The notes below the pieces were generated by a model. It had not been told where the DNA came from, made no database searches, and worked only from the letters and a program-made list of their open reading frames with translations. Made by a program: the position numbers and the translations under genes. From IMG/VR virus record IMGVR_UViG_2778261530_000011: a stretch of DNA of 38,435 nt, one strand, 5' to 3'. Positions 1 through 21,715 of this stretch are shown piece after piece. Position 1 is the first letter of the stretch, and each line of letters begins with the position of its first letter. The DNA comes from a virus. Lineage: Duplodnaviria > Heunggongvirae > Uroviricota > Caudoviricetes.

Positions 1-90
1 TTGCCTCCCCCCCGTTGATGGGTAAAATAGCCGCAATTTTTCGTTTTCAACAAGCGCGGCGCGATGCCGCTTACTCAAGAAGAAAGAATT

Positions 91-1877: not shown

Positions 1878-1897
1878 GCGCCTTGAATGCAAGGCGC
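1878..1897. other. Stable hairpin (gcgcctt-gaatgc-aaggcgc) just past the 3' end of the minus-strand cassette; possible terminator for int read-through
   Basis: 7-bp perfect stem read directly; flanked by T-rich tracts on the + strand. Confidence 0.3.
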
Positions 1898-1903
1898 TAT
1901 TTA

Positions 1904-2401
1904 TCAAGATAGTCTATTCAGATCAGTATTAGGTGTGTTTCTTTTTGATGCAAAGATGGATTTGAATCTTTTTGAGTAACTATCAAAAAACCATTTTGTA
2001 TAATTACCTTCAATTTCCTCTAATATTGAATACTTCATCTCATGAAGTTCATTTTTATAATCACACTTTTTGCTTAACAAGTCTAAAGGTGTTGATCTGA
2101 TAGATGACAACTGTTCATCACATAATAATTTCTTACCAATCCTTTGTGATAAATGAGACAGCTGCATTTCAATTAATGAGACACTGGAGGCTAAAAAATT
2201 ATCCAACTCTAATTCTTTAGTATCTCTAGAAGAGAGCTTATCTAAAACATTATCAAAAAGAGATTCTATTTGCTGACAGATTTTATCCTTTTGCCTTGAA
2301 ATATCATTTCGCTTGAATGCTCTATTGTTGAAATAAGACGCAACAAGCCAACCAATTATAGCAATTACAATACTTGTATAATTAACCTCTTCCTGCATCA
2401 C
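1904..2401 (-). CDS. Hypothetical membrane-anchored protein (single N-terminal TM helix, charged or coiled C-terminal domain); third gene of cargo cassette
   Basis: 165-aa ORF; hydrophobic stretch IVIAIIGWLVASYF near the N-terminus; start overlaps the stop of the upstream gene; AT-rich codon usage. Confidence 0.5.
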   Translation of the reverse strand: MMQEEVNYTSIVIAIIGWLVASYFNNRAFKRNDISRQKDKICQQIESLFDNVLDKLSSRDTKELELDNFLASSVSLIEMQLSHLSQRIGKKLLCDEQLSSIRSTPLDLLSKKCDYKNELHEMKYSILEEIEGNYTKWFFDSYSKRFKSIFASKRNTPNTDLNRLS

Positions 2402-2714
2402 TCTCTGCCTTATTCAATCGTTCATCAATCAAGGTCTCAATACTCTTAATATCTTTATGAGTATAAGTTAGTTTTTTCTTAAGTTCGCTTAATGTGTAGC
2501 CTTCTACTCGGATCAAGCCACCAAACGCTTCATCAATAAATGAACGCCCATAACGGTTATATCCAGTCAACTCAACATGAACTAAATCATACTCTTTGAG
2601 AAAGCCTGCCAGATATTTGCGAAAGTTTTCCCCACAGCCTGCCCCATCGTCTGGATAGCGCCCGTAAGGCTTACTGTTGAAGTCTTTGATAACATTGATG
2701 TTTTTAGTCTTCAT
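2382..2714 (-). CDS. STAS-like small protein (DUF4325-like, anti-sigma-antagonist-like fold)
   Basis: 110-aa ORF; size and sequence character (SFIDEAFGGLIRVEGY) recalled as DUF4325, which typically accompanies GHKL ATPases; overlaps flanking genes by 11 and 20 nt. Confidence 0.5.
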   Translation of the reverse strand: MKTKNINVIKDFNSKPYGRYPDDGAGCGENFRKYLAGFLKEYDLVHVELTGYNRYGRSFIDEAFGGLIRVEGYTLSELKKKLTYTHKDIKSIETLIDERLNKAESDAGRG

Positions 2715-3813
2715 AGCTGACCTTGATGTTCCACTGAATTAAAGTACCTGGTACTTTATGAGTTAACTCATTAATTTTATCACCTTTCTTATTAGAAAGC
2801 TTGAACATACCTAAATTACTGTAAATCCAAAGATTTCCATGTTCATTATTTAGTACTAGAGCTTTAATACTCTTACTTCCTTGACCATGTTTATCATTGG
2901 CTGTACCGGTTACGTCTCCAATCATAGAAATTGCTATTTTTACTGCATCAGAAACAATACCTACTTTTACTTTAGAGCGCTCTTTATAACCTAAACCTAT
3001 TCTCTCAAGTTCTTCGTTAACCGCAACCTTTAGATCTGGATATTTTGATTTGAGCGTACTCATAAACCATGTCTTTTGCATTACAGTTTCAGGTATACCA
3101 ACACCTTCATCATATATAGCAAGATAAAGCTGGTCATGAATTACGTGACATGCAAGCCACCATCGTTTCTCATCATTATTTTTATGCGGATAGGCGTGTA
3201 AACCAACATTATTTATTGCTTCCTGAACAGCATCTGCATATGTATGTTCTGTTTCAGGTTTCATCTTGTTTTTATAAATTTCTTTCTGGATGAAATCTAT
3301 AATCTCATCTCTATATTCTCCTCCTACCCCGCTAATAATGGGCAAGTTTTCAACGTTTTCGAAGACAGGTTTTAATTTTTCGCCCCGACATAAGGCGACA
3401 AGACCTGAGTCTCTTAAAAGCTGATTAACTTTAAAATCTGTTGAAAATAATAATCTGTACGATAAACCTTTACGAATTGAAGTTTCAACACTGGCATAAA
3501 GTATTACTAATGCTGCCATTTTTATTGTTTTTGTATTTGTAAAATCTAAATATAATCTCTCATCAGGATTATATTTTTTATTCCTGACGTGATTTATCGA
3601 GTGTAGAGAGTGCGCAAAAAAATTAGGCTTATCTGGTGAATATATTGAAAACTCAGATGGAAACCGAATAAAGGTATTATCTTTTTTCTTTTGAGATTTT
3701 TTTTGTTGACGAAACTGCGAATACTCTTTCCCTTGACGGGAAACACTTCGCTGCCATCTTTTAAAAGCCAGCCTAATTCTTACACTTTTTTCCTTATTGG
3801 CCTTGTTTTCCAT
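2704..3813 (-). CDS. GHKL-superfamily (histidine-kinase-like) ATPase with uncharacterised N-terminal half
   Basis: 369-aa ORF; N-box-like EAINNVGLHA, G1 box DEGVGIP (DxGxG), G2 box GQGSKS in the C-terminal half; lysine-rich N-terminus; putative AGGGGA SD upstream of the ATG at 3813. Confidence 0.6.
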   Translation of the reverse strand: MENKANKEKSVRIRLAFKRWQRSVSRQGKEYSQFRQQKKSQKKKDNTFIRFPSEFSIYSPDKPNFFAHSLHSINHVRNKKYNPDERLYLDFTNTKTIKMAALVILYASVETSIRKGLSYRLLFSTDFKVNQLLRDSGLVALCRGEKLKPVFENVENLPIISGVGGEYRDEIIDFIQKEIYKNKMKPETEHTYADAVQEAINNVGLHAYPHKNNDEKRWWLACHVIHDQLYLAIYDEGVGIPETVMQKTWFMSTLKSKYPDLKVAVNEELERIGLGYKERSKVKVGIVSDAVKIAISMIGDVTGTANDKHGQGSKSIKALVLNNEHGNLWIYSNLGMFKLSNKKGDKINELTHKVPGTLIQWNIKVSYED

Positions 3814-4590
3814 GTGTCCCCTATCAATATGCTGTTCTTTTCATACTACGAATGATAGTACAATTAAACCAAGATTGGTATACAGACTACCCGTCGTCCA
3901 GCACAAAAATTTTGTTGGTGGTGAGATTGAAAAACGTAGTTGAATCATATAGATATGCTGCTTGAGTATAAAAATACCGTTCTTAGCCATGCTCAAGAAC
4001 GGCTTGGTTTTGTTGTTGATAAAAATACTAAAGCTTTAACGAGTCTTAAATCAATATTGAAATAACAAAATCAAATTAATTAACAAGAGGTTTATCATTG
4101 AAAAAATATAACCCAAGAAAAATCATTAATTTTGAGTTCCAATTAACACAAAATACAACTTAATAATGCTCATGAATATATTAAATCATTAATGCAGATA
4201 GTATTATTACCGAATAGGAACACAGCAACTTAGCTTATTCTGCCCTATTTATACCACTGCTCCTGACCTTGTGTGGTAGCAGGAGCATCAGACCAGTCAC
4301 GATTCTTGGGTTGCTGACTTGGGGCACGATCATTACTTGATACATTCTACTTTTCTTCCTTGAGAACCTTAATATTTCCATATGTCGCTACTTTACCCTC
4401 CTGCTTTCAGGCCTACATTCATACGGGGTTCAGCGTGCTTTAAACTATACTTCGCTTACCATTAAAATATTGTATTTCTTAGTATCAGCCGATGACTTTA
4501 CCCTTTTGGGGCTCGGGACATTTTTTCTTGTATATTTCAGGAAAATATTAAATAACCATTTATCCATATAGTGATGTCAACTAATAGCTA

Positions 4591-4785
4591 CTACTCAATA
4601 ATTCCAGCAAATCTGTATATCTTGTGTGATGCCCATTTATTTGGGCAGGATTTAATATCCGGATCTGGAAAGTCAGGCCTGTATTTCTGGCCCGTTCTCC
4701 TGTTTACACTGTTCCAGCGAAGAACAGTCGATACTGAAACGCCACAGAATTCGGCAACTTGTTTTGTTGTCATTAAGTTGTTCAT
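4591..4785 (-). CDS. xis: Excisionase / AlpA-family HTH DNA-binding protein
   Basis: 64-aa ORF with TKQVAEFCGVSVSTVLRW helix-turn-helix; strong AGGAGG SD 6-7 nt upstream; position between int-proximal cargo and early-left genes. Confidence 0.75.
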   Translation of the reverse strand: MNNLMTTKQVAEFCGVSVSTVLRWNSVNRRTGQKYRPDFPDPDIKSCPNKWASHKIYRFAGIIE

Positions 4786-5405
4786 TACTTCACCTCCTGC
4801 GGCGGCTCCGGTAGCGGTATCCAGTGGGTTACTTTCGATGCCGGTTCTTCTCCATCGTCAGTAACTGCCCACCATTTGTTTCTCGACCAATCGTAATACC
4901 CTTCGAAGGCATCGCACTTAGTCCAGCCGTAAGACTTACCCCAACACCAAACATACTGTTTATCGTTCGGCATTCGCTCACTACAGCTTATCCAACCATC
5001 CGGAGTTACCGGAGAGTTGCCCGATAGCTTGTTCAACTTGTAAGTCTGGCTTACAGGTTTGGCACCATGAAGCATGGTGGCGCGGCAGGCGTTCCAGCCT
5101 TCATCAAAGCCGACTATGCCATTATTTAAAGACGGACGAGCATCTGGCACCACCGGCACTGGCTTGGCTATATATAGCGGCTGAACATACCAGCCCTTTG
5201 ATAACCAACTGTCAGCAACGTTTTTACTTCTGGTTATTGCTGGAATACCCAAGCCATTGTCTGAATGCAGCCATGCCACCGGTTCTGCTTCCAGCGAGGC
5301 TAATGCTATTTCATAAGCCCGGCGCTCAATATTGTCTCGCACATCCAAGCTGCCTATGCGCTCTTTGATTTCTTTAATCATTTCTTTGTCGGTAAAAGTG
5401 GTCAT
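4785..5405 (-). CDS. DUF551-domain prophage protein
   Basis: 206-aa ORF with Trp-rich C-terminus ending WIPLPEPP, characteristic of DUF551; start and stop overlap neighbouring genes. Confidence 0.75.
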   Translation of the reverse strand: MTTFTDKEMIKEIKERIGSLDVRDNIERRAYEIALASLEAEPVAWLHSDNGLGIPAITRSKNVADSWLSKGWYVQPLYIAKPVPVVPDARPSLNNGIVGFDEGWNACRATMLHGAKPVSQTYKLNKLSGNSPVTPDGWISCSERMPNDKQYVWCWGKSYGWTKCDAFEGYYDWSRNKWWAVTDDGEEPASKVTHWIPLPEPPQEVK

Positions 5406-5917
5406 GCCGCATTTCCTTCTTGCTTATTAACGATTACACCGTCATATATTTCATTAAGGTGCCCTCTCAACTCCATGCGCCTTAATGCAGATAACATGTA
5501 ATCGCATTCAACCTGCTTATTCCCAATAAAAGGTTTATCTTCAGGGTTACCCCAACAGCAATTCCCCTTGGGCCATCCATGTACTTTCCGTACTCTTCCG
5601 TTAACAACGTGAAGTAATCCCCAGCCGGGAGGTAAATCCTCAACTGAAATAACTCCCGGCTCACTAATAAAGAATCGCCAGTCGCCCATGCCAAGTGAGG
5701 GATTTTTACGGAAACGCTTTTTTCTATCTGCCAACAAGTCAGCGCGAGAACACTTCGCCTCTATCAGGCATGATGCTGAATTTCTGAATCCCATAGCATC
5801 TGGCTGTTCTCCGGTACTGGTTACAGCTATAAAGCGGTCATGAAAACAAACCTTGAACCCGTTGCGCTTAAGGAACTTATACGCAATCTGACAGAGTTCG
5901 CGGTGTGTTAACGCCAT
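5402..5917 (-). CDS. Hypothetical protein, possible PD-(D/E)XK-fold (MmcB-like) nuclease
   Basis: ATG at 5917 preceded by AGGAG SD (the track's longer ORF begins upstream); D ... IEAK motif spacing suggests a restriction-endonuclease-like fold; function is inference. Confidence 0.55.
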   Translation of the reverse strand: MALTHRELCQIAYKFLKRNGFKVCFHDRFIAVTSTGEQPDAMGFRNSASCLIEAKCSRADLLADRKKRFRKNPSLGMGDWRFFISEPGVISVEDLPPGWGLLHVVNGRVRKVHGWPKGNCCWGNPEDKPFIGNKQVECDYMLSALRRMELRGHLNEIYDGVIVNKQEGNAA

Positions 5918-6093
5918 ATCACTCTCCTTTAGTGCGCAAGTGGTTTTTCCAGCGGTTTTGCGCCGCACTGGGCTTTTTGCAACAACTGTGCCCCATCACC
6001 CCGCAACACCCCGTCAACCTCACTCGTCTGTTGCTAATCCTCAACCATCGCCAGACCCCAACACCGTTTCTGCGAGCTAACAGAATCTTTGCT

Positions 6094-6852
6094 TTACAGT
6101 TTTTCATCGCTTTGCTCTCCTGCGTCTCCTTTGGTGCCAATATTTACAGCCTGACAAGCCTCTTTAAGCACCCAGTCAACAGCGTCCTTCCATGCTCCGG
6201 TTTCAGCTGGCGGATTCTCACACTTTACCTGTTCATAGAAGCGCACTGCTTTAACCAGTCCTTCCAGTACTACTGGCGATGGCTGTTTAGCTTCTAAATC
6301 AGCAATTCTGTCAACCACGGTATCGACGGCATCTGAAAAGCCGAACCAGTTACTCCACTCCGGCCTATCCCCGGTTGCTGCAAAATACATATCAGCTAAA
6401 GCAGACTCAGCATGGTCACGCTCATTGATGAGTTGCTCTTCGCTTTTCTCCAGTTCAGCAATACGCTTACTTCCATCCGAGATAACACCTTCGTAATATT
6501 CACGCTGCTCGTTGAGTTTTGATTTTGTCTCCTCAAGTTCAGCAACCAGTTTTCGAAGCCCTTCAATCTCACCATTGCGAGCAATGAGGTCGCGGCACAT
6601 GCTTTCGTTCTCATCCAGCAGTGCCAGCACGGTAGCCGGATTGGCTGCGGCTATGAATCGTTTATTGGCGCGATTATCCGGTCCTGAGCATGATGCTATG
6701 TAGTAATTGGCGTTCAGTCCGGCATCGGCAATTACTCCATGGTAGTCATCAGTACACCATTCGCCTGGTGTTGCATTTTCTGCCGCCAGTCGCAGAGCCT
6801 GATAGTTAATCTCGCTCACTGGTTGCCTCCTTTGCGAATCTGTTCCGCCCAT
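6094..6852 (-). CDS. Ea22-like early-left-operon protein
   Basis: 252-aa ORF; acidic coiled-coil middle and overall character recalled from ead/Ea22-like family proteins of lambdoid phages. Confidence 0.6.
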   Translation of the reverse strand: MGGTDSQRRQPVSEINYQALRLAAENATPGEWCTDDYHGVIADAGLNANYYIASCSGPDNRANKRFIAAANPATVLALLDENESMCRDLIARNGEIEGLRKLVAELEETKSKLNEQREYYEGVISDGSKRIAELEKSEEQLINERDHAESALADMYFAATGDRPEWSNWFGFSDAVDTVVDRIADLEAKQPSPVVLEGLVKAVRFYEQVKCENPPAETGAWKDAVDWVLKEACQAVNIGTKGDAGEQSDEKL

Positions 6853-7337
6853 TCTTCTAGGGATTTTTCCGCATATTCACCAGACAGGCCATCAATCGGA
6901 TGCGGTTCATTAGCCAACTCTTCTTTCGCTGACAGAATCATGCGCGTAACGTCGAAAACTTCACGTAAAGACTTATTGATAAATCCGTGGTTGAAAGCAG
7001 CAGCAAGACGACTTGCGGTATAGTTAATCCCCTCGTTGCGAGCCGCCGCACGAATTTCAGCCAGAAAAGCATCGGTGGCTGGAATTTGCGGCATACCTCC
7101 GTCTGTTGCGCAGATATACGCATCAGATATTTCATCCTGCTCGCCATTAAACACATAGCAACTCTGTACGATAAATTTATTCAGCCGCGCATTCTCCGCC
7201 GCCAGCGTCTCGCATTTAGCTTCAAGCGCGTCGAACTTACGTACCAGGTACTCAGCATTTGTTTCGTTCACTTTCAGATCTCGTGGTACACATCTCCCGC
7301 GAAGAAACCCTTCCATTTCGAAAACATTCATGCGCAT
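6816..7337 (-). CDS. Hypothetical early-left-operon protein
   Basis: 173-aa ORF; GGAG SD upstream of the ATG at 7337; overlaps both neighbours as in a coupled operon. Confidence 0.55.
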   Translation of the reverse strand: MRMNVFEMEGFLRGRCVPRDLKVNETNAEYLVRKFDALEAKCETLAAENARLNKFIVQSCYVFNGEQDEISDAYICATDGGMPQIPATDAFLAEIRAAARNEGINYTASRLAAAFNHGFINKSLREVFDVTRMILSAKEELANEPHPIDGLSGEYAEKSLEEWAEQIRKGGNQ

Positions 7338-7864
7338 TTGCGTAACTCCGATAACTCGTTAAAACGTTCCATAAACATCCCGTAGGCATGGCCCGGAGCC
7401 AGTGGAATAACTTTGAACATCTCTGTTGCCGGGATACCTTCCAGTACTGGCCAGAAAGAGCCATCATCAAGCCCGAGATCGCGGCGTTCAGTTGCCAGCA
7501 TGATGAGATCGGCATATTTCACAGGCGTGCTCATAACCGGGGGTAACCCGTATTTCTCACGGATTACGGCGTCTATTTTTTCTTCCATCCGTTTATAGTC
7601 AGGAAGAAGGCGTTTCAGTGGAGCCGGGATGTCCTGGCAATACGCTTCTGTTGCATCATGCATTAACGCTTCAAAAGCAAATTCCTGCGGTACCAGCTGG
7701 CTGCAAAGCACCGCATGTTGGGCGACGCTATAGAAGTGTGAAAGATGGCCGGCAAAGCGACAGATATTTGAAAGGGAAACCGCGATATCGTTAATATCGA
7801 TGTTGTCTTTATTTATCCTGTCATAATAAAAATGCTTCCCGGAAAAAGTTTTAATAAATGACAT
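7328..7864 (-). CDS. HD-domain phosphohydrolase (YfdR-like 5'-deoxynucleotidase family)
   Basis: ATG at 7864 with GGAG SD; H..HD motif (SVAQHA...MHDATE) typical of the HD superfamily. Confidence 0.7.
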   Translation of the reverse strand: MSFIKTFSGKHFYYDRINKDNIDINDIAVSLSNICRFAGHLSHFYSVAQHAVLCSQLVPQEFAFEALMHDATEAYCQDIPAPLKRLLPDYKRMEEKIDAVIREKYGLPPVMSTPVKYADLIMLATERRDLGLDDGSFWPVLEGIPATEMFKVIPLAPGHAYGMFMERFNELSELRKCA

Positions 7865-7992
7865 TTTGTTCTCCACGTTATATGCACTGCACCGTGCTGA
7901 ATTTTGGTTAAAGAAAACCCTCGCCTTCAGGCGATTATTGAGTCAATTACGTTCCCATAAATGCCCCCGCAGGGGCATTTGCAGTAATGAAA

Positions 7993-8817
7993 TCAGGCGG
8001 TGAAAGTACCAATAAAGGTTTCTACTTTGCTGTCTTTGAATTTCTCAACAAGCAGATCACGAAATTCGTTAGCCATTTCTTCCTGCACCGCTTCCAGCTG
8101 AATAATGCGCAGAACCAGTACAGGACGATCGCCAGTGATAATGCTGAGGCGTAATTTAAATGGACGTTCTTTCAGGCCTTCAAACGGAACGCATTTAAAC
8201 TCAAATGCCACTGGCATAATGTCTTTGGTCTTCGCTTCGACAGACTCCATCAGGGAGCGTTTGCCGCTGAAGTCATTATCTTCAAAATCCGCGGTCTGGT
8301 TTGCTTCAATCGTGATTTTACGGACCGCCGCAGCCGCTTTTGTTGCCTGAATGGTGTCACCATTAGCATCAAAGCCCATAAGGTAGTCGGCCCAGTCTTC
8401 AATCCATTCTGCCAGTGATTTCTGGGAGTTACGCTCGCCATTAACAGACAACAGAGCAGAGAACGGTGCTGTCTTTTTCAGTTTGAGAGTGGCGGTGTTA
8501 TCTGCGTGACCTGGTTCATCAATAGTCCCCAGGTTAAGCACGCTGACGGCACGCATATTATCAGCATCGATAAAGCAGCGGGTGCCTTCATCTGCAAGAT
8601 CTTTAGAATAACGGGTAAAGTCATCGATGCTGGCAGTGGAAAGCGCACCACGGAAACGGAAGCGATTTAAATTAAATTTTTCCAGATCATGAATGCGGAA
8701 ATTCTCAGGCAATGCCACAGCATCGGCACCAATCTTACTGATAATTTCATTAACACCCTGAGCAGAAATAAGGGCATGGATTTGATTAATTGCGGTTGCG
8801 TCTAAGTTCTGAGACAT
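7993..8817 (-). CDS. DUF2303-family protein (YfdQ-like)
   Basis: 274-aa ORF with GAGGA SD; recalled similarity to CPS-53-type prophage YfdQ. Confidence 0.65.
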
Positions 8818-8882
8818 AATAAGTCCTCACTATATAAAGATATTCAGTGATGAGATAAATAATCAGTTTATTAAAAACGATA

Positions 8883-9245
8883 TTAACGACCTGCTGCGCG
8901 GAGTTTTCCGTCAGGTTCACCGGCAAGAGTCAGTAATTGTCCCTGGTCTTCCTGCAGAATAGTCAGGCGACCACCGCGATTGACATACATCGGCGTTTCG
9001 GTGGTGTCTTCTTCGGAAATTTTCCCGCGGTTAGTCGGGCGAACATATGAGAGTTTGTGTTTGATTTTCACACGGTTCTCATCAAATGGTTCGATTTCCA
9101 GGTTGAGTGAGACCTTACCTTTGGTTTTCGTGTTCATCACACCGGAAGCGACTTCACTGAGAACTGCGCCGATTTTGGTTTCAAATACGCCGCCGTCCAG
9201 CTCCCCGATAAATGCCTGCACATCAGTACTGCGTTCGCTAGCCAT
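8883..9245 (-). CDS. Hypothetical protein, first gene of the early-left operon
   Basis: Start placed at the internal ATG at 9245 preceded by GAGGAG SD; the longer track ORF (to 9476) has an Arg/Cys/Pro-rich N-terminus with no RBS. Confidence 0.6.
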   Translation of the reverse strand: MASERSTDVQAFIGELDGGVFETKIGAVLSEVASGVMNTKTKGKVSLNLEIEPFDENRVKIKHKLSYVRPTNRGKISEEDTTETPMYVNRGGRLTILQEDQGQLLTLAGEPDGKLRAAGR

Positions 9246-9841
9246 TTTGCTGCTCCTCATCATATCGACCCTGCAAGGTCGGTTGGTTTCTCCACAAAAC
9301 AGAGAAGAACACCTGCGGTGGCAGCCGCCCGGATGGATTGGGTTATGAGCCCGTCGTCCGGTGATGCTCTTCTCTGTTTTGTAAAAAGAGCGGTACCAGC
9401 CGGAAGCAAGTGTACAAACTGGTACCGCCAAAGCAGTGGCTGTTGTGGTGGGGTTGTCACTCAGGCGTATGGTCAACCTGACAATCCGGTGTCCTCAACG
9501 GGGAAAGAGTAACCCAGCCATACTTACCGCCGCGCCATTTCGCGGATGACCACAACGCTGAGAGCACTTAGCCAGTTACGGCACCACACTTTGTCGCGGC
9601 TCCATAAATGCCCTCATCGTTGCACCCTGGTCTCTTCCCAGGCGTCAAACCGGATCGCCACGCTGGTTAGGCGTCTTATCAGCATCATCATTGACTTGCA
9701 CATTCCGGCTACCTGGTTTGTTTGCCCTAGCAAGGAGTGGATTGTCCCCTTTAACGTCCCCAGACCGCTAACGACGCATGTGCCATACGCCGTGTTACAA
9801 CCAAATTTTGTTTGAATCTTGCCTGCCTCATGTTTCTTTTG

Positions 9842-9867
9842 GATACATTATGTATCTCATGGGTACA
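9842..9867. promoter_or_regulatory. Candidate left operator (OL-like): overlapping palindromes GATACAT-TA-ATGTATC and TGTAT-N7-GTACA
   Basis: Dyad symmetry read directly; shares the TGTAY-N7-GTACA motif with the cI-cro intergenic sites. Confidence 0.4.
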
Positions 9868-9876
9868 TTGTCAAGT

Positions 9877-9901
9877 ATAAAAAAACCTGCCGAAGCAGGT
9901 T
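9877..9901 (-). terminator. Rho-independent terminator downstream of cI
   Basis: On the minus strand, GC stem cctgc / gcagg with 4-nt loop followed by a T-run (A-run 9879-9885 on +), 13 nt past the cI stop. Confidence 0.6.
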
Positions 9902-9913
9902 CATAAATATTGA

Positions 9914-10588
9914 TTAGGCCTTTATTGTGTATCTTCTTGGTTTTCCCGAGAAAATCACTGTACCAATTATAGAGCAATTACCGTTAATCTTAATGTAAGG
10001 CTCAGGCCAGTTTGGGTTTAATGCTTTGAGATAACGCTGTGTTCCATCTTCTATCAATCGCTTGAAGGTGGTTTCGCCTGTATCGTGCATCAATGCAATA
10101 ACGTCGTCACCGTGGCAGGCAGGGACTTCGGGATCAACAAAAATCATGTCTCCAGGGCGGTACTCATCAATCATTGAATCACCAATCACCCGCAAGATAT
10201 AAGTCATTTCGCCACAGGGTACAGGGCAGGGATACGTTTCTGCTGTGCTCAAATCAACCTCAGAATAGCCAACTTCTTTCCATGCTCCGGCCTGTACCCA
10301 TGATATGACAGGGACTAACGTTATTTGTTTGTTAGTGATTGAAACATCAGGTTTTTTTGTGATGTTCGTTGTCTGGTGTTCTTGATCAAGCCATCCGACA
10401 GGCAGGTCGAAACATTTTTCGATGTGCCGTGCCATGCTGTCACCGATATTTTTAGTAGCGCCATCCCCCATAAACCTGCTGGTTTGGGTTGGCTCGCGAT
10501 CAATCATGGTGGCAAAGGATGAATTTCCGCCAACACCATCTCTCAGTTTTCTGGCGTTAGACCGCCGGATGTCATGGATTGTTTTCAT
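9914..10588 (-). CDS. cI: CI-type prophage repressor (N-terminal HTH, C-terminal S24 LexA-like autopeptidase)
   Basis: 224-aa ORF; GDSM serine motif and downstream Lys of S24 peptidases; divergent from a Cro-like gene; ATG at 10588 has no SD, consistent with a leaderless PRM-type transcript. Confidence 0.85.
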   Translation of the reverse strand: MKTIHDIRRSNARKLRDGVGGNSSFATMIDREPTQTSRFMGDGATKNIGDSMARHIEKCFDLPVGWLDQEHQTTNITKKPDVSITNKQITLVPVISWVQAGAWKEVGYSEVDLSTAETYPCPVPCGEMTYILRVIGDSMIDEYRPGDMIFVDPEVPACHGDDVIALMHDTGETTFKRLIEDGTQRYLKALNPNWPEPYIKINGNCSIIGTVIFSGKPRRYTIKA

Positions 10589-10604
10589 AACGAAATTAAA
10601 ACCT

Positions 10605-10623
10605 TTGTACCGATAAGGTACAA
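10605..10623. promoter_or_regulatory. Operator palindrome TTGTACC-GATAA-GGTACAA in the cI-cro intergenic region
   Basis: Perfect 7-5-7 inverted repeat 17 nt upstream of the cI start; a second TGTAT-N7-GTACA site lies at 10656-10672. Confidence 0.55.
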
Positions 10624-10678
10624 GTATCTTGAAGGTTCATTTCAATCATGTAATATGTATACTGGAGGTACATATTGT

Positions 10679-10879
10679 ATGAAAGCGTATTGGGACTCTT
10701 TAACCAAAGAACAGCAGGGCGAGTTGGCCGGAAAAGTTGGCTCAACACCTGGCTACTTACGGCTGGTTTTCAATGGTTATAAAAAAGCCAGTTTTGTGCT
10801 GGCGAAAAAACTTGAGCAATGCACGTCAGGTGCAATTACGAAATCTGACTTAAGACCGGATATCTATCCGAAAGATTAA
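10679..10879 (+). CDS. cro: Cro/YdaS-like small HTH regulator
   Basis: ATG at 10679 with GGAGG SD; 66 aa; divergent from cI; the track's longer ORF from 10574 would span the operators. Confidence 0.7.
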   Translation: MKAYWDSLTKEQQGELAGKVGSTPGYLRLVFNGYKKASFVLAKKLEQCTSGAITKSDLRPDIYPKD

Positions 10880-10910
10880 CAGAACACCTTCAATTTTTAA
10901 CCACAGAACG

Positions 10911-11474
10911 ATGAGGCTAACCGTGGGTAAGTATCACTGGAAAGTAGAAAAACAGCCTGAGTGGTACGTGAAAGCTGTCAGAAAAACTATCGCAGCGTTG
11001 CCGGGTGGTTACGCTGAAGCAGCTGACTGGCTGGATGTAACAGAGAACGCATTATTTAACCGCCTTCGTGCCGATGGCGATCAGATTTTCCCGCTGGGAT
11101 GGGCAATGGTTTTACAGCGCGCGGCTGACACTCACTACATTGCGGATGCTGTCGCACAGTCTGCTGGTGGGGTGTTCGTATCGCTTCCTGAAATTGAGGA
11201 AGTAGAGAACGCCGATATAAACCAGCGCCTGCTGGAAGTCATCGAACAGATCGGGAATTACTCAAAGCAGATTCGTTCGGCAATCGAAGATGGGGTCGTG
11301 GAGCCACACGAGCAGACAGCAATTAATGATGAGTTGTATCTGTCAATTTCGAAGCTCCAAGAGCATGCAGCACTGGTCTACAAAATCTTTTGCGCTCCAG
11401 AAAAGAGTGACGCCCGCGAGTGTGCAGCTCCGGGCGTCGTGGCGTTTTGTGTCTGTGGAGAAACTAACGCATGA
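10911..11474 (+). CDS. YdaT-family / CII-like protein
   Basis: 187-aa ORF immediately after cro, as in Rac-type immunity regions; family assignment from recall. Confidence 0.5.
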   Translation: MRLTVGKYHWKVEKQPEWYVKAVRKTIAALPGGYAEAADWLDVTENALFNRLRADGDQIFPLGWAMVLQRAADTHYIADAVAQSAGGVFVSLPEIEEVENADINQRLLEVIEQIGNYSKQIRSAIEDGVVEPHEQTAINDELYLSISKLQEHAALVYKIFCAPEKSDARECAAPGVVAFCVCGETNA

Positions 11475-12307
11475 ACAGTTTAACGGCAAATAACCGTTTG
11501 TCGCAACAGCTGGTGGTCAGTGTCGCTGAACACCTGTTGTTACGGCATGAATGCAGATTACCAAATCACCTGGCTGTAAGTAACCACAGAGAACTTTACC
11601 TGACTGTGGGGGGCGAGTTGTGCGGGAACTTAACCGCTGGTTTCGTGACGGAAGAGGGCTTTATGTCCATGTTATTCGTTGGGAACCAGAAACACAGCGC
11701 GTTATCTATCTTCGCAAAGACTACCCGCATGAGTGCTTTAGTCCTTTGTGGAAATTCAGGCGTGATTTTGTTGAGTGTGAAGGACCACCAGCACATTGAT
11801 TCTGCCATTCCGGGACGTTACACTGTTCAGGCACCTTATAAAGCGGGTGACGGGATTGGCGTCCTGGAAATGTTATCGGCGATATATGACGCGCCAGCGT
11901 CTTTTTTATCGTCTGTGTCTGTGCACACCCAAATTATGGTGGGCTGGACGGGGGCACCGAAAGGTGCGCCGGTTTCCGATAACGCCGGTTACGCCAACCC
12001 CGTTCAGTTCACCACCAGCGAAATTGGCGTTTCCGGTGGTGAAGGTAATTCACTGTTATCGGAGGCTGCCATCATGGCTACTGTCCCAGCCCTCACTCGT
12101 CTGAATGATGAAGACTTACATAAACTCAGTTATGTAACAACTGCACTACGTGCTCTGCGCAAGGTAACTCTTTCGGATCCGCAGGCGCATCAGGTTTTGG
12201 TAGAAACCCTTCTTAACTTGCAGGCTGAACGTATTCGTCTGGCGGATAAGGCTAATTTTCATATTCACCGTCTCCTGAATATCAGCGGAGGGCATCGTCA
12301 TGCTTAA
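11471..12307 (+). CDS. Hypothetical protein
   Basis: 278-aa ORF; ATGA start/stop overlap with the upstream gene; no recognisable Walker motifs. Confidence 0.55.
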   Translation: MNSLTANNRLSQQLVVSVAEHLLLRHECRLPNHLAVSNHRELYLTVGGELCGNLTAGFVTEEGFMSMLFVGNQKHSALSIFAKTTRMSALVLCGNSGVILLSVKDHQHIDSAIPGRYTVQAPYKAGDGIGVLEMLSAIYDAPASFLSSVSVHTQIMVGWTGAPKGAPVSDNAGYANPVQFTTSEIGVSGGEGNSLLSEAAIMATVPALTRLNDEDLHKLSYVTTALRALRKVTLSDPQAHQVLVETLLNLQAERIRLADKANFHIHRLLNISGGHRHA

Positions 12308-12532
12308 TCCGTTGATCCTCAATATTTGCCGTTTGCTTCAGCGTAAAAAAACATCAATTCCTACAGTTGGGCAGTGGTACACCACGCCTGCAGGGCATGT
12401 TCTACGTGTTAGCCTGGTTGACCGTGAATGTCAGAAGGTGATTTGTGAACCGCTGGGCCGTAATTACCGCATCAGTATGCCGCTTATAGCCTTTTGCTCC
12501 GGAAAAAACATGAAGCATCTCGGAGGTGCAGC

Positions 12533-13351
12533 ATGAGTATGGAGCTGATGGTTAAAGCGATGAAAATTCGAGTGGGTAATCCATTGCGAAAACTGGTTCT
12601 GATCAAGCTGGCTGATAATGCCAGCGATCAGGGTGAGTGCTGGCCCAGCTACCAGCATATTGCTGACCAGTGCGAGATTAGCAAACGTTCTGTGATGAAT
12701 CATATTGCGGCCCTTTGTGATTCCGGGCTGGTAAAAAAAGTCACCCGGAAAGGTGAAAAAGGTAACTCAAGTAATATCTATCTCCTTCATCTTGATGGTG
12801 CAGGAGATTCACTAGGGGGTAGTGCAAATAATTCACTATCTGGTGCAGCAAATTCACCAGGTAGTGCAGGAGTTGCACCAGGGGGTGGTGCAGGAGATTC
12901 ACCCAGAACCAGTCACTCTTTTGAACCAGTCAAAGAACCAGTCAATGAACCAATAGCTGTTGGTGCATCTGCTGATGAGTCTGTGCGAGTTCGTTCAAAC
13001 CGACCGGAATACTCTCCGGAGTTTGAGCAGGCATGGCTGGCATACCCCAAACGTGCTGGTGGCAATTCAAAATCTGCAGCCTTCAAAGCCTGGAAAGCCC
13101 GTTTGAATGAGGGGGTAAAACCCGAAACCATGCTGGAAGGTGTGAAACGCTACGCGGGCTGGGTATCTGCGATGGGTAACAGCGGCACACAATTTGTGAA
13201 ACAGGCTGTCACGTTCTTTGGTCCGGATCGTCATTTCGAAGAATCCTGGGAAGTTCCTGCGGTATCTGCAGCCAGACGCGAGGACCCGTACTTCAAAGCC
13301 AGTTACGACAACGTGGACTACAGCCAGATCCCGGCAGGATTCAGGGGGTGA
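12533..13351 (+). CDS. Replication initiator (O-like) with N-terminal HTH and internal origin iterons
   Basis: ATG at 12533 with GGAGG SD; N-terminal HTH (SYQHIADQCEISKRSVMNHIAAL); tandem DNA repeats inside the coding sequence as in lambda O/ori. Confidence 0.65.
   Translation: MSMELMVKAMKIRVGNPLRKLVLIKLADNASDQGECWPSYQHIADQCEISKRSVMNHIAALCDSGLVKKVTRKGEKGNSSNIYLLHLDGAGDSLGGSANNSLSGAANSPGSAGVAPGGGAGDSPRTSHSFEPVKEPVNEPIAVGASADESVRVRSNRPEYSPEFEQAWLAYPKRAGGNSKSAAFKAWKARLNEGVKPETMLEGVKRYAGWVSAMGNSGTQFVKQAVTFFGPDRHFEESWEVPAVSAARREDPYFKASYDNVDYSQIPAGFRG
12797..12945. repeat. Candidate origin iterons: about five GGTGCAG...ATTCAC-type repeats at roughly 20-bp spacing, then three GAACCAGTCA direct repeats
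   Basis: ggtgcaggagattcac occurs at 12797 and 12887 with degenerate copies between; gaaccagtca at about 12906, 12922 and 12935. Confidence 0.55.
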
Positions 13352-16034: not shown

Positions 16035-17030
16035 GTGACCGTGAGAGCACTACTGACCCCTGAAATTGCCCCGCGTATGGGGATCGTATTGTTCAGGCCA
16101 GGTTCAGAGCTGATGCCCCTGTTTATGCAGGGGCGTGTCCTGCTGGAGCCTGAGCCGGAACGTTATTCATCTTTCGCCAGTGGTGCCGTTCCGGCTGCAT
16201 CACAACCGCTGGCGGATGATCCTGCCGTTCGGGCCGTGTTCCGCAATGAGGCAGTGATCCGTCGTGCTGGTGGCGTGGAATGTCTTGAAAGCTGTTTACT
16301 TCGTGAAAAAGGCTGCCAGTGGCCTCATTCCGACTGGCACAGCGAGAACATGACCACAATGCGACACGCGCCGGGCGCAATCCGTCTGTGCTGGCACTGC
16401 GATAACCAGCTGCGCGATCAGTTCACGGAACGGCTGGAATCAATGGCAACGGATAACTGTGCCCGCTGGGTGTTGTCTGTTGTGCGTCGGGATCTCGGTT
16501 TTGATGACAGTCACGTTGTGACAATGCCGGAACTGTGCTGGTGGCTGATTCGTAATGATCTGGCGGATGCCTTACCGGAAAGTGCAGCCCGTAAGGCACT
16601 GAGATTACCGAAGCCTGTTGTGCCGTCTGTTACCCGGGAAAGTGACCTTGTGCCTTCGGTTCCTGCCACCAGCATCATCCAGGATAAGGCGAAAAAGGTG
16701 CTGGCGCTGAAAGTGGATCCGGAGTCGCCGGAGTCTTTTATGTTACGCCCAAAACGTCGCCGCTGGGTTAATGAAAAGTACACGCGGTGGGTTAAGACAC
16801 AGCCGTGTGCATGTTGTGGAAAGCCCGCTGATGATCCCCACCACCTGATAGGTCACGGTCAGGGTGGAATGGGAACAAAAGCGCATGACCTTTTTGTGTT
16901 GCCTTTGTGCAGAAAGCATCACGACGAGCTGCATGCGGATACCGTGGCATTTGAAGAGAAGTATGGCTCCCAGCTGGAGCTGATATTTCGTTTTATCGAT
17001 CGTGCGCTGGCAATTGGCGTGCTGGCCTGA
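16035..17030 (+). CDS. DUF968-family protein with C-terminal Cys/His-rich HNH-like motif
   Basis: 331 aa; C-terminal CACCGKPADDPHHLIGHGQGG...CRKHHDELH; start codon (GTG 16035 or later) uncertain. Confidence 0.65.
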   Translation: MTVRALLTPEIAPRMGIVLFRPGSELMPLFMQGRVLLEPEPERYSSFASGAVPAASQPLADDPAVRAVFRNEAVIRRAGGVECLESCLLREKGCQWPHSDWHSENMTTMRHAPGAIRLCWHCDNQLRDQFTERLESMATDNCARWVLSVVRRDLGFDDSHVVTMPELCWWLIRNDLADALPESAARKALRLPKPVVPSVTRESDLVPSVPATSIIQDKAKKVLALKVDPESPESFMLRPKRRRWVNEKYTRWVKTQPCACCGKPADDPHHLIGHGQGGMGTKAHDLFVLPLCRKHHDELHADTVAFEEKYGSQLELIFRFIDRALAIGVLA

Positions 17031-17047
17031 TTTTGTGGAGAAAGTTG

Positions 17048-17410
17048 ATGCGTGATATGTATGAAGTATTGGACCGCTGGGGAGCATGGGCTGCAGCAGA
17101 AAATAGTGGTGTGGACTGGCAGCCGATAGCGGCTGGTTTCAAGGGACTTTTACCACACGGTAAAAAGTCACGTCTCCAGTGTGATGATGATGAAGGCATC
17201 ATGATAGACGGTTGTGTGGCTCGGTTGCGAAAGTATAAACCAGAGGAATATGAGCTAATCATAGCTCACTTTGTTATTGGTATCTCATTACGCACTATTG
17301 CCAAGAAGAGAAGATGTTCAGATGGCACAATTAGGAAGGAATTGCAGACTGCCATGGGGTTTATCAGCGGTGTAATAATAACTATAAACCCCATTATGGT
17401 AGTTAATTAA
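17048..17410 (+). CDS. Late-gene antiterminator Q-like protein (small Q family)
   Basis: ATG at 17048 with GGAG SD; 120 aa; last + strand gene before the lysis cassette; family assignment from recall and position. Confidence 0.55.
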   Translation: MRDMYEVLDRWGAWAAAENSGVDWQPIAAGFKGLLPHGKKSRLQCDDDEGIMIDGCVARLRKYKPEEYELIIAHFVIGISLRTIAKKRRCSDGTIRKELQTAMGFISGVIITINPIMVVN

Positions 17411-17978
17411 TGTGAATCCTATCACCAAGATAGTATAGTCCAAAAAATGTTGAAACAAGCATTTGCCATGTAAGGAATAAAAAGATAATGATATAGCACC
17501 AGTTTGCTATATCATTATTCAGTATGTTTATTAGTGGTGTGATAAAAGCGTTGAAAATCACTATGCATATGCTGAGGGCAGTTAAAAATGAAAATAACAT
17601 GCACAGAAATAATCTTCTGGTAAGTTTCTCTTGAGTGTCAACAATTCTACCATTTTCTTTTGTTCGTGTAATTTTAATAAAAGGAGTGCCATTAGTTCCT
17701 ATCAGAGGGTAGTCAATTTGTTCTCTGTTGAAAGTGGCTATTGCTGCAAGAGCTGCTATATAAAAACCTGGCAGATTTGATACAAATCCAGATATAGACT
17801 TAATAAAGCCGCCATCTTTTAGTAGGTCTGATGTAGGTATTTTAAATAAATAAAAGTAAAAAAAAGAAATCACAGCAAGCCCGGCAGGTGCATAAAAATC
17901 GTATGCGCACTTACCACTAATTCCCTTAATGAAAAGGTAACCAAACGGTCTAAATAAATGTGAAAATATACTAATCAT
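17403..17978 (-). CDS. Multi-pass (about 4 TM) inner-membrane protein; second gene of AT-rich moron
   Basis: 191 aa with four hydrophobic helices; GAGG SD 7 nt upstream; 3' end overlaps the Q 3' end by 8 nt. Confidence 0.6.
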   Translation of the reverse strand: MISIFSHLFRPFGYLFIKGISGKCAYDFYAPAGLAVISFFYFYLFKIPTSDLLKDGGFIKSISGFVSNLPGFYIAALAAIATFNREQIDYPLIGTNGTPFIKITRTKENGRIVDTQEKLTRRLFLCMLFSFLTALSICIVIFNAFITPLINILNNDIANWCYIIIFLFLTWQMLVSTFFGLYYLGDRIHIN

Positions 17979-17985
17979 ATTAGCC

Positions 17986-19014
17986 TCACATGACCTCGAT
18001 AATCTTATTCACAAACTCCATGTTAATACTATCATAAGAATCCTTTAAGCGCGAAGAAAAACCATTTATTACACTCTTTTTGATAAATGTTTTTTCCAGC
18101 CCATCCAGCCTTACATTTGAAGTTTGAAGGTCAACTTGTCTTGTGAATCCTGTCTCTGGCTCTTTGAATTTTATTTTTATTAAGTCATAACCTCCATTTT
18201 TATCTTCTTTAAAGAAGTTTGAGACAGATTTTATCCATCCAAGGACATTGTTGGGGCCATGGTTTGGTACTAAGCGTAAAGTACTTTCTTTAGGAATAAT
18301 AGCCGCGTTAACATCTGGCGCATTAATAGTTCTGTATTCATTCTTTACCAAAACGACATCAGAAAGTCCTTCTTTATTTATTTTATTGAACAAATCTTCA
18401 TCTAACTTTCCAGATATATCAAAGACTGGCTTGTATAATACTTTTATTTTTTTCTTTGTTAAACTTGACACTTCATTTGTTAAAGTGTTACATGAAAAGA
18501 TATCTTCATTATCTTTGGCTACGTTAAAGAGAACTTTATTCAGGAAACCATTTATTTTTGCTGTGGAAACTCCTGGTATTGGCATAAAACTCATGTCATA
18601 CGTTCGCATATTTCCGTCTAGAGAAATAATCATATGAGAAGAAACTTCGTAACCTTCACCTTCCTCATGTTTTGGTGATATTTCGGTGCGAACATCTGTA
18701 TTAATGTTTTTTAATACAGTAGTGCTTCCATTTTTATCTACAGCATTAATTAAAAGACCAAGATGGCTGGGTTTTTTATCGGCTCTGTTTGATAAGAATA
18801 TTACATCTTGTAAAGTTAAAACTAAGTCTCCTTTTTCATAACTGTGCATCATTGCTTTACAACGTACTATTTTAGAAGCAAGTTCACGCATTGTTGGTAC
18901 CGGGCAAACACAGTTCGATCTGATGCTATCATCAATTTTCTGTGTACGGTATTGTGTATCGATCGTAATAGTATGATGAGTTATTACTCTACTGAATGCG
19001 TCCAGTGTAGCCAT
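17986..19014 (-). CDS. Hypothetical soluble protein; first gene of AT-rich moron
   Basis: 342-aa ORF, AT-rich, no recognisable catalytic motif; no obvious SD at 19014, so the start could be at an internal Met. Confidence 0.55.
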   Translation of the reverse strand: MATLDAFSRVITHHTITIDTQYRTQKIDDSIRSNCVCPVPTMRELASKIVRCKAMMHSYEKGDLVLTLQDVIFLSNRADKKPSHLGLLINAVDKNGSTTVLKNINTDVRTEISPKHEEGEGYEVSSHMIISLDGNMRTYDMSFMPIPGVSTAKINGFLNKVLFNVAKDNEDIFSCNTLTNEVSSLTKKKIKVLYKPVFDISGKLDEDLFNKINKEGLSDVVLVKNEYRTINAPDVNAAIIPKESTLRLVPNHGPNNVLGWIKSVSNFFKEDKNGGYDLIKIKFKEPETGFTRQVDLQTSNVRLDGLEKTFIKKSVINGFSSRLKDSYDSINMEFVNKIIEVM

Positions 19015-19128
19015 TTCAAAATATCCGCTTCTTTGCTGTTTTTATATGGAGAAAGTTTACATAACCACTAACGCGTACGCAAAAACTATTGTATCGTGTT
19101 AAGAGTGGTTACTTCGCCACACAGCTTA

Positions 19129-19157
19129 AACCCGCCGTCGAGCGGGTTTTGTCGTTT
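19129..19157 (+). terminator. Rho-independent terminator upstream of the lysis genes (tR'-like)
   Basis: Stem aacccgc/gcgggtt with 6-nt loop followed by TTTTGTCGTTT. Confidence 0.55.
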
Positions 19158-19301
19158 CTGGGGCTGGGGATTCGTTGGTCCTGGCCTATTCCGCAGTTAT
19201 CCATTGGCTCGGCTTCTTTGACGTTTCCGCTTCTGATTTGCGGTACATGATGTTCCCTCAATTTGCACTTGCTGTATCAGCGAGGTGAGAGATAACTACA
19301 A

Positions 19302-19628
19302 ATGCCTCATAACCCAAATACCTGGCTGGAGTTGGTCCAGAGCTGGTGGCGTGGAGACACACCACTGGGCGCAGTGATTATGTCGATTGTTATGGCTGGA
19401 TTGCGCATTGCCTATTTTGGCGGTGGTGGTGGGTGGAAGCGAAAAACGCTCGAGATTTTGCTCTGTGGTGCTCTGACGCTGACTTTTGCATCCGCTCTTG
19501 AGTATGTCGGATGGCCTAAATCTCTTTCTGTTGCCATTGGTGGCGGTGTTGGGCTGATTGGTGTCGATGCAATTCGTGGGGCTGCAATGCGAGTAATCGG
19601 TAACAAATTTGGTAGCTCGAAGGAGTAA
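19302..19628 (+). CDS. S: Class I holin (lambda S-like)
   Basis: 108 aa; hydrophobic helices and charged C-terminus resembling lambda S; immediately upstream of R. Confidence 0.8.
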   Translation: MPHNPNTWLELVQSWWRGDTPLGAVIMSIVMAGLRIAYFGGGGGWKRKTLEILLCGALTLTFASALEYVGWPKSLSVAIGGGVGLIGVDAIRGAAMRVIGNKFGSSKE

Positions 19629-19631
19629 TTT

Positions 19632-20108
19632 ATGCAGGCACTAAATTCCCAGCGTAAAGCTTTCCTCGATATGGTGGCATGGTCAGAAGGAACGGATAAC
19701 GGACGGCAGAAAACCAGAAATCATGGTTATGACGTCATTGTAGGCGGAGAGCTATTTACTGATTACTCCGATCATCCTCGCAAACTTGTCACACTAAACC
19801 CAAAACTAAAATCAACAGCCGCCGGACGTTATCAGCTTCTTTCACGCTGGTGGGATGCTTATCGTAAGCAGCTTGCTCTGAAAGACTTCTCTCCGAAAAG
19901 CCAGGACGCTGTGGCATTGCAGCAGATTAAGGAGCGTGGCGCTTTACCGATGATTGATCGCGGTGATATTCGTCAGGCAATTGACCGTTGCAGCAATATC
20001 TGGGCTTCACTGCCGGGCGCTGGTTATGGTCAGTTCGAGCATAAGGCTGACAGCCTGATTGCAAAATTCAAAGAAGCAGGCGGAACGGTCAGAGAGATTG
20101 AGGTATGA
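19632..20108 (+). CDS. R: Endolysin (lytic transglycosylase, lambda R)
   Basis: 158 aa, near-identical to lambda R as recalled ([35 protein letters not shown]). Confidence 0.95.
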
Positions 20109-20597: not shown

Positions 20598-20891
20598 TTA
20601 TTGTGAGCAATACACACGCGCTTCCAGTGGAGTATAAATGCCTAAAGTAATAAAACCGAGAAATCCATTTACGAATGTTTGCTGGGTTTCTGTTTTAACA
20701 ACATTTTCTGCGCCGCCACAAATTTTGGCTGCATCGACAGTTTTCTTCTGCCCAATTCCAGAGACGAAGAAATGGTGGGTGATGGTTTCCTTTGGTGTTA
20801 CTGCTGCCGGTTTGTTTTGAACAGTAAACGTCTGTTGGGCACATCCTGTAATAAGCAGGGCCAGCGCAGTAGCGAGTAGCATTTTTTTCAT
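20598..20891 (-). CDS. bor: Bor outer-membrane lipoprotein (serum-resistance-associated)
   Basis: 97 aa, near-identical to lambda Bor; lipobox LITGC. Confidence 0.95.
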   Translation of the reverse strand: MKKMLLATALALLITGCAQQTFTVQNKPAAVTPKETITHHFFVSGIGQKKTVDAAKICGGAENVVKTETQQTFVNGFLGFITLGIYTPLEARVYCSQ

Positions 20892-21181: not shown

Positions 21182-21715
21182 TTAGCGTGGAAAGATTTGT
21201 GTAGTGTTCTGAATGCTCTCAGTAAATAGTAATGAATTATCAAAGGCATAGTAATATCTTTTATGTTCGTGGATATTTGTAACCCATCGGAAAACTCCTG
21301 CTTTAGCAAGATTTTCCCTGTATTGCTGAAATGTGATTTCTCTTGATTTCAACCTATCATAGGACGTTTCTATAAGATGCGTATTTCTTGAGAATTTAAC
21401 ATTTACAACCTTTTTAAGTCCTTTTATTAACACAGTGTTATCGTTTTCTAACACAATGTGAATATTATCTGTGGCTAGATAGTAAATATAATGTGAGACA
21501 TTGTGACGTTTTAGTTCAGAATAAAACAATTCACAGTTTAAATCTTTTCGCACTTGATCGAATATTTCTTTAAAAATGGCAACCTGAGCCATTGGTAAAA
21601 CCTTCCATGTGATACGAGGGCGCGTAGTTTGCATTATCGTTTTTATCGTTTCAATCTGGTCTGACCTCTTTGTGTTTTGTTGATGATTTATGTCAAATAT
21701 TAGGAATGTTTTCAA
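21182..21715 (-). CDS. DUF1398-like protein (lambda p78 / YbcV-like putative envelope protein)
   Basis: 177-aa AT-rich ORF at the lambda p78 position; true start may be internal. Confidence 0.5.

Follow-up and report, generated by a model that had tools for sequence, protein, structure and literature searches.

What do two AT-rich genes contribute to a lambdoid prophage that carries them between its antiterminator gene and its lysis genes, on the strand opposite to late transcription? The question is raised by a 38,435-nucleotide (nt) stretch of tailed-phage DNA (IMG/VR record IMGVR_UViG_2778261530_000011; hereafter the window), a lambdoid prophage of the type integrated at tRNA-Arg beside intD in Escherichia coli 04-00955, in which a gene for a soluble protein of 342 amino acids (aa), here called A, is followed by a gene for a 191-aa membrane protein, B (Table 1). 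Here, we place the pair in a catalogued but functionally unassigned family of phage defence candidates, describe its distribution, predicted structures and gene neighbourhoods, and propose, with a probability of about one half, that it is a further Rex-like system, a prophage-borne exclusion or abortive-infection module that would work in the manner of RexA and RexB.

Both reading frames are real genes and not chance open reading frames (ORFs), because the proteins match PHROG families (A to phrog_9879 with an expectation value, E, of 3e-203, and B to phrog_8257 at E 1e-99) and PADLOC models over their full length and have many homologues. A preliminary description of the window, made from its letters, had placed two minus-strand genes here, and the ORF list agrees exactly with its coordinates and protein lengths. 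It had also read a GAGG Shine-Dalgarno sequence ahead of B, which is present, and a distance of 8 nt between the genes, which we measure as 7 nt. The GAGG overlaps the TGA stop codon of A and lies 5 nt ahead of the ATG of B; this overlap and the short gap suggest that A and B are translationally coupled in one operon. The composition profile falls to a G+C fraction (GC) of 0.30-0.36 over ~17300-19100, against 0.46-0.59 in the flanks, and this dip, together with the strand of both ORFs, supports the earlier view of the pair as an AT-rich insert of the moron type that is read against the late genes.

Searches of PADLOC-DB identified the family to which the pair belongs. A matches the model PDC-M53A (PDLC04696) at E 1.3e-31, with residues 8-340 aligned to profile positions 5-316 of 320, and it also matches three further A sub-models; B matches PDC-M53B (PDLC04699) at E 1.7e-54, with residues 4-190 aligned to positions 2-186 of 188. 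The arrangement that defines PDC-M53 is also found in the window, where A stands before B, adjacent and on the same strand across the 7-nt gap. Judged by sequence the window pair is a member of PDC-M53, and we saw no difference from it. PDC-M53 is one of 145 phage defence candidates (PDC), selected on the ground that at least one instance of each lies inside a BREX, DISARM or type I restriction-modification (RM) locus, and it corresponds to cassette CAS_00171, tabulated solely as an assigned two-family cassette with no mechanism, name or link to Rex (Payne et al. 2024, bioRxiv 10.1101/2024.01.29.577857). The suggestion that the genes form an uncharacterised family is therefore right as regards function, which the catalogue leaves unassigned, and wrong in so far as it implies an unlisted family, the pair being catalogued both as PDC-M53 and as two PHROGs. 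Pfam and NCBIfam returned only noise for A and B.

Across the family the two genes occur together. In 80 viral-contig loci, an A-family gene lies directly upstream and on the same strand for 79 of the 81 B genes (79 of 80 evaluable), and the system is therefore an obligate pair. The gaps between A and B in the 79 loci are mostly 1-15 nt, with 7 nt the commonest value. One of the two unpaired B genes sits at a contig end and the other is a true orphan (our locus L088, 4931-5503), where the ORFs ahead of B, 129 aa and 149 aa long, have no match to the A profile. The gene upstream of distant B homologues, including those in Vibrio and Halomonas genomes, encodes an A-family protein of other PADLOC sub-models. 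In three viral contigs (among L012-L091) the gene before B is reduced to the C-terminal 135 aa of A; such fragments match a separate PHROG, phrog_30139 (135 aa), and truncated A alleles therefore recur.

The two components evolve at different rates. Direct searches yielded 34 homologue clusters for A and 609 for B, the latter reaching Vibrio, Shewanella, Aeromonas, Halomonas, Endozoicomonas and methanotrophs, and a profile search recovered 308 A clusters at 50% identity, nearly all of 310-345 aa. PADLOC needs five sub-models for A, which diverges down to 17% identity, and one model for B: the membrane component is conserved and the soluble component diverges fast. A protein of 5,191 aa (P0297) contains 24 separate stretches that match A-profile positions 12-97 (E 1.4e-8) and could be a giant repeat protein of A-like N-terminal modules or a compositional artefact.

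The exact pair is found in 15 of 5,426 complete E. coli genomes, always adjoining Q, and the slot of Shigella phage SfII holds a pair with 58% identity (orf50/orf49), between flanks ~96% identical to those of the window. More distant carriers differ widely. A pair in a Halomonas prophage adjoins an Eco29kI RM system, and on the chromosome of Vibrio cyclitrophicus (L003, 1-6558) a distant A-B pair ends a prophage whose capsid gene is of the double-jelly-roll kind known from PM2 (Pfam P2_N/P2_C), so that non-tailed, corticovirus-like phages carry the module too. The pair is thus AT-rich mobile cargo of unrelated phage types (among them lambdoids, a Halomonas prophage and a corticovirus-like prophage of Vibrio).

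For protein B, the preliminary estimate of about four transmembrane helices is borne out by four hydrophobic segments in the sequence and by an AlphaFold2 model (predicted local distance difference test, pLDDT, 86; predicted template-modelling score, pTM, 0.82) with long helices at residues 23-44, 58-82, 121-153 and 156-187 and a beta-hairpin at 100-118 in the central loop. Lambda RexB and gp31 of phage Sbash (genome record KP027201, found by homology) likewise have four transmembrane segments. In all three proteins Lys and Arg are concentrated at the two termini and in the central loop and are missing from the remaining loops, a distribution that predicts both termini and the central loop to be cytoplasmic. 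The basic central loop is longest in B (43 aa, eight Lys/Arg), and substitutions in the equivalent loop of Sbash gp31 have been reported to abolish defence. The residues invariant in the B family include K23, R121, R122, Q172 and a GLYYLG motif. When the B model was compared with viral models using Foldseek, the best match by TM-score and probability was a 165-aa Sbash protein (TM-score 0.46/0.52, probability 0.77, E 0.75), probably gp31, given its equal length, though the match is weak. Inside gene B, in the stretch coding for the loop between the third and fourth helices, lies an inverted repeat with a ~15-bp stem (17484-17519), which the terminator scan flags on both strands, though it is AT-rich and intragenic.

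Protein A had been described as soluble and without a recognisable motif, and both points stand: hydrophobic segments are absent (the highest Kyte-Doolittle value in a 19-residue window is 0.70), and Pfam and NCBIfam are empty for it. Comparison of its predicted fold with the PDB gave E. coli RdgC (2OWL, score 8.0) and lambda RexA (8TWQ, 7.7) as the best matches, followed by CENP-N/CHL4 (6.9) and IML3 (5.9), which points to a two-domain alpha/beta fold of the RdgC/RexA type for A, in the Rex direction of the earlier guess; the similarity is at the level of the fold only. Sequence searches of the PDB, made with narrow and with broad profiles of A, found nothing. The A family has an invariant His127 and a conserved E-G-x3-S-x-H motif, in which E144 of the wider family is Met in the window protein. 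Among viral models, the significant Foldseek matches of A were four uncharacterised metagenomic phage proteins only (E ~4e-9). Fold matches in BFVD from Siphoviridae sp. ctylc9, an A-like protein (A0A8S5S8L2, 314 aa, significant) and a B-like protein (A0A8S5S8H0, 172 aa), suggest that this phage holds a further diverged pair beyond the reach of sequence searches.

A second line of evidence comes from gene neighbourhoods. When the 143 genes that flank the pair in 40 non-redundant clusters were assigned to Pfam families, the leading families were Phage_antitermQ (9), Peptidase_S24 (8) and DUF968 (6), accompanied by methylase, helix-turn-helix (HTH), integrase, holin and Phage_CI_repr genes. The nine Phage_antitermQ clusters represent the enterobacterial Q-proximal slot, in which the Q gene adjoins B. 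In some clusters the pair follows a repressor: HTH and Peptidase_S24 domains, the CI/LexA repressor type, were present in 7 of 10 upstream same-strand neighbours tested, and local hidden Markov model (HMM) searches detected a repressor of this type no more than 1 kb upstream, on the strand of the pair, in 9 of the 40 clusters, six of them within 150 nt (21-141 nt), and found no repressor close downstream of the pair. This is the layout of cI-rexA-rexB, and for those relatives it implies expression in the lysogen.

A RexAB-like organisation with no sequence resemblance to RexAB was the picture drawn initially, and both halves of it survive. Gene order and architecture are the same, a soluble protein followed by a four-transmembrane protein, and the lack of resemblance holds through profile-profile tests, which are among several results that weigh against a Rex-like assignment. 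When 122 homologues of A (up to E 1) and 81 of B were scanned one by one with Pfam, RexA (PF15969), RexB (PF15968) and RdgC (PF04381) were missing even from the weak hits, and no Kiwa signal recurred; lambda RexA itself matches PF15969 at 1e-97. With hhalign scores judged against shuffled controls, the A family compared with the RexA family reached a probability of 0.8% and a score of 19.4 (shuffled range 12.3-26.3), and the B family compared with a RexB family alignment of 17 sequences, built from rexA loci, reached a score of 12.2 and E 0.43 (shuffled range 9.3-21.5); A against the lambda RexA sequence and B against the lambda RexB sequence likewise stayed at the level of the controls. The pair therefore lies outside the RexA and RexB sequence families. 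At the level of structure, lambda RexA and Sbash gp30 are absent from the best 50 Foldseek matches of A among viral models, nothing was significant for B in the same comparison (including the gp31 match given above), and a four-helix membrane bundle is a generic fold. The synteny is not specific to Rex either, because the region behind a prophage repressor is a general accessory hotspot, and in the window itself the pair occupies the Q-proximal slot, oriented against the late genes and away from the repressor, whereas lambda rexAB belongs to the immunity operon. A consensus scan of 19015-19100, where a promoter of the pair's own had been placed beforehand, gave no match at 9/12 or better, leaving one weak candidate, considered below. 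Lastly, a literature search for PDC-M53, the RefSeq accessions and the SfII orf49/orf50 proteins found nothing, and no experiments on the family. The weight of the sequence tests has to be read with a calibration: Sbash gp30 and gp31, which are experimentally validated, also lack Pfam RexA or RexB matches, so that the Rex-like class is not defined by sequence; hhalign of A against Sbash gp30 and of B against gp31 also gave nothing above shuffled controls.

The mechanism we propose assigns sensing to the variable protein and execution to the conserved one. A would be a cytoplasmic, fast-evolving sensor whose two domains fold like those of RdgC and RexA, and it would probably dimerise and bind DNA or a phage protein in complex with DNA. 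B would be a conserved four-helix inner-membrane protein that exposes its termini and its large, basic central loop to the cytoplasm. When another phage infects, A may engage B, probably through the central loop, and B would then depolarise or permeabilise the membrane, halting growth and phage development. We infer that the pair is made in the lysogen, in the window from a weak promoter of its own, antisense to late transcription, and in many other phages by co-transcription with a CI-type repressor.

The position of the pair in the window bears on its status as cargo. The last 8 nt of Q (17403-17410) overlap the stop-codon region of B, so Q and B converge. On the other side of the slot, the late-region block is common to SfII, vB_EcoS-569R4, PhiR49_2 and Stx phages; megablast flank matches begin at window ~19057-19063, and a terminator scan detected a terminator-like hairpin (19128-19149, plus strand) with a T-run. 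No Rfam RNA family was found in 16900-19700. Past the block, the holin gene is followed by lysozyme and then Rz. In PhiR49_2 the late block comes directly after the Q stop codon, and the slot is therefore empty there. In Stx2a_1447, stx2AB lies on the late strand, downstream of the late block, a methylase and tRNAs. With the pair before the block and stx2AB after it, the interval from Q to S has two cargo sub-slots, of which the pair occupies the Q-proximal one, antisense and in a position different from that of stx. The initial placement between Q and the terminator and holin thus stands, while its equation with the site of stx fails for Stx2a_1447, where the toxin genes lie beyond the block.

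Two further cassettes of the same design occupy this slot. In 569R4 (L007, 2903-4298) an antisense gene for a 286-aa soluble protein is followed by one for a 182-aa multi-pass membrane protein (GC 0.31), without a Pfam or PADLOC match and with no profile similarity to A/B or RexA/B. In Stx2a_1447 (L118, 4912-6475) the corresponding antisense genes (GC 0.38) encode a soluble protein of 343 aa and then a multi-pass membrane protein of 179 aa, and PADLOC matches neither. We considered whether these pairs are distant relatives of A/B or of RexA/B, and rejected this after comparisons showed no relation.

Table 1. Features of the A-B locus and its borders in the 38,435-nt window.
Feature	Position	Strand	Description
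Gene A	17986..19014	minus	342 aa, soluble; family PDC-M53A / phrog_9879; proposed cytoplasmic sensor
Gene B	17403..17978	minus	191 aa, four transmembrane helices; PDC-M53B / phrog_8257; proposed membrane effector
GAGG Shine-Dalgarno sequence for B	17984..17987	minus	Junction sequence ATCGAGGTCATGTGAGGCTAATATG
AT-rich cargo island	17400..19056		GC ~0.33; fills the space from the Q stop to the late-promoter block
Candidate sigma-70 promoter	19054..19082	minus	-35 TTGCGT 19082..19077, 17-nt spacer, -10 TAAACT 19059..19054; weak
Antiterminator Q gene	17033..17410	plus	RefSeq 'antiterminator Q family protein' for the equivalent gene; left border of the slot
Conserved late-region (promoter/terminator) block	19057..19160	plus	Four-phage alignment; ends in a tR'-like intrinsic terminator; right border of the slot
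Lambda-family holin S	19302..19628	plus	RefSeq 'phage holin, lambda family'; first gene of the lysis cassette

The candidate promoter TTGCGT-N17-TAAACT would give a leader of ~33 nt and scores below the threshold of the promoter tool. Of nine diverged enterobacterial cassettes, eight have TTGCGT-N17-TAATAT/TAAACT or a close variant at the corresponding site ahead of A; the candidate overlaps the conserved late block, and its conservation is therefore ambiguous and may reflect the function of the block. With this weak motif as the signal, expression of the pair in the lysogen is an inference. The terminator scan predicted no minus-strand terminator between B and Q, so a transcript of the pair would run antisense into Q. 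In lambda, paQ exerts antisense control, and an antisense reading of the pair into Q (17000-17403) recalls it.

How firmly do these observations favour a Rex-like module with A as sensor and B as effector? The roles could be reversed, in the style of Kiwa or Butters: B would be a membrane sensor or anchor that restrains A, and a DNA-binding A, once released or activated, would block phage replication, recombination or late transcription, with B detecting phage-induced membrane changes or sequestering its partner. That the nearest fold of A is RdgC, a DNA-binding inhibitor of RecA function, speaks for such an arrangement, as do reports that RexA homologues bind DNA non-specifically and that the Butters gp30/gp31 system has a cytosolic effector held in check by the membrane protein. 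Kiwa likewise combines a four-transmembrane protein with a cytosolic, DNA-acting partner and is described as sensing at the membrane, and the invariant His127 and the E-G-x3-S-x-H motif of A could form an active or binding site. We nevertheless consider reversed roles less likely. A conserved B and a diversifying A fit a variable sensor and a conserved effector better, which favours the assignment of sensor to A and effector to B; PADLOC and Pfam returned no Kiwa or DUF4868 match; the soluble gene comes first, opposite to kwaA-kwaB; and the replacement of E144 by Met in the window protein argues against a shared catalytic centre.

Two other readings dispense with exclusion of the Rex kind. The pair might serve prophage physiology, tuning the lysis-lysogeny switch or the timing of lysis, with its antisense transcript damping Q in the lysogen. 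The literature offers a precedent in RexA, which stabilises the lytic state without RexB, and in RexB, which modulates proteolysis of phage and host proteins; the pair adjoins either a repressor or Q and lysis genes, and the overlap of the B stop with the 3' end of Q, with no predicted minus-strand terminator, would allow antisense transcription into Q. Such a role is improbable for a family that was catalogued through instances inside BREX, DISARM or RM loci and is carried by very different phage types, with and without Q; moreover, the cassettes in the slot are interchangeable, unrelated or absent, as befits accessory cargo and not core regulation. Less probable still is a toxin-antitoxin-like addiction module or a block to DNA entry, with B as the toxin in the membrane or the barrier to entry and A as antitoxin or regulator of B. 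The close coupling of two genes in one operon, a small multi-pass membrane protein as product and carriage by a mobile element would suit this, as would the one orphan B without A in L088. A is large, however (~330 aa), with a conserved two-domain fold, and present in 79 of 80 evaluable loci; Pfam, NCBIfam, PADLOC and PHROGs show no match to a toxin-antitoxin or superinfection exclusion (Sie) family; and a protein that blocks entry would have no need of a conserved partner in the cytoplasm whose fold is that of a DNA-binding protein. The Rex-like module, in which A senses and B acts on the membrane, is the best explanation we can offer.

Other features of the window lie outside the slot. Positions 1-13275 diverge from the otherwise 98.5%-identical prophage of E. 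coli 04-00955, with patches of 87-97% identity only, which indicates that the left 13 kb is a mosaic early or immunity region. Past the lysis cassette, minus-strand cargo comprises a Bor-like lipoprotein gene and a low-GC 177-aa ORF (20598-20891, 21182-21715), the latter sitting where RefSeq places a DUF1398 ybcV gene in the matching E. coli prophage.

The existence of the pair had been catalogued. What appears to be new, in the literature that we searched, is its link to Rex by fold and synteny, the size and breadth of the family, and the two further cassettes of identical design but unrelated sequence in the same slot. PDC-M53 comprises at least 308 A clusters at 50% identity, spans the Gammaproteobacteria and occurs in tailed and corticovirus-like phages. 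More tentatively, it may be a large branch of a superfamily that joins a Rex/RdgC fold to a four-transmembrane partner beyond the reach of sequence linkage, with the Q-proximal slot swapping at least three unrelated cassettes of sensor and membrane effector. By the count of a 2026 paper, only five Rex-like systems have been described; were the superfamily reading true, Rex-type exclusion would be a widespread strategy rather than an oddity of lambda known from five cases, and together with the swapping of cassettes it would mean that a single design of abortive infection diversified convergently or at a very early date. The question of how RexAB recognises an infection and arrests the cell goes back ~70 years, to Benzer's observation. 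If PDC-M53 works like RexAB, it would supply hundreds of natural variants for mapping the sensor-effector interface and the specificity of the trigger, combining a conserved B (R121/R122, K23, Q172) with a diversifying A (invariant H127), and one of PADLOC's 145 candidates would gain a testable function. The slot itself would be a site of defence cargo in lambdoid prophages, those of Stx phages and of the serotype-converting phages of Shigella among them, and may shape the range of phages that infect pathogenic E. coli and Shigella.

Set beside known systems, the pair shares different features with each. Kiwa is alike in combining a four-transmembrane protein of ~190-200 aa with a cytosolic protein of ~310-340 aa; we rejected identity with Kiwa, given the missing Kiwa and DUF4868 matches and a gene order opposite to that of kwaA-kwaB. 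E. coli RdgC (2OWL, PF04381) has no sequence similarity to A; it is encoded on the chromosome and modulates recombination on its own, without a partner in the membrane. The Rex-like systems Sbash gp30/gp31, CarolAnn gp44/gp43 and Pseudomonas putida RexABpp (PP_5643/5644) have the same two-gene architecture and have been tested experimentally, whereas the PDC-M53 pair is known here from sequence and models; RexApp reportedly matches RexA with an HHpred probability of 98%, a match that A lacks, and the Sbash proteins are nearer in size to our pair (gp30 372 aa, gp31 165 aa). Lambda RexA and RexB are the smaller proteins, at 279 aa against 342 for A and 144 aa against 191 for B, and the central loop of RexB has 17 aa, as compared with 43 aa including a beta-hairpin in B. 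In both cases, prophage cargo in a single operon encodes a soluble protein and then a four-transmembrane inner-membrane protein; the predicted fold of A is nearest to RexA and RdgC in the PDB, and the predicted topology of B is that of RexB.

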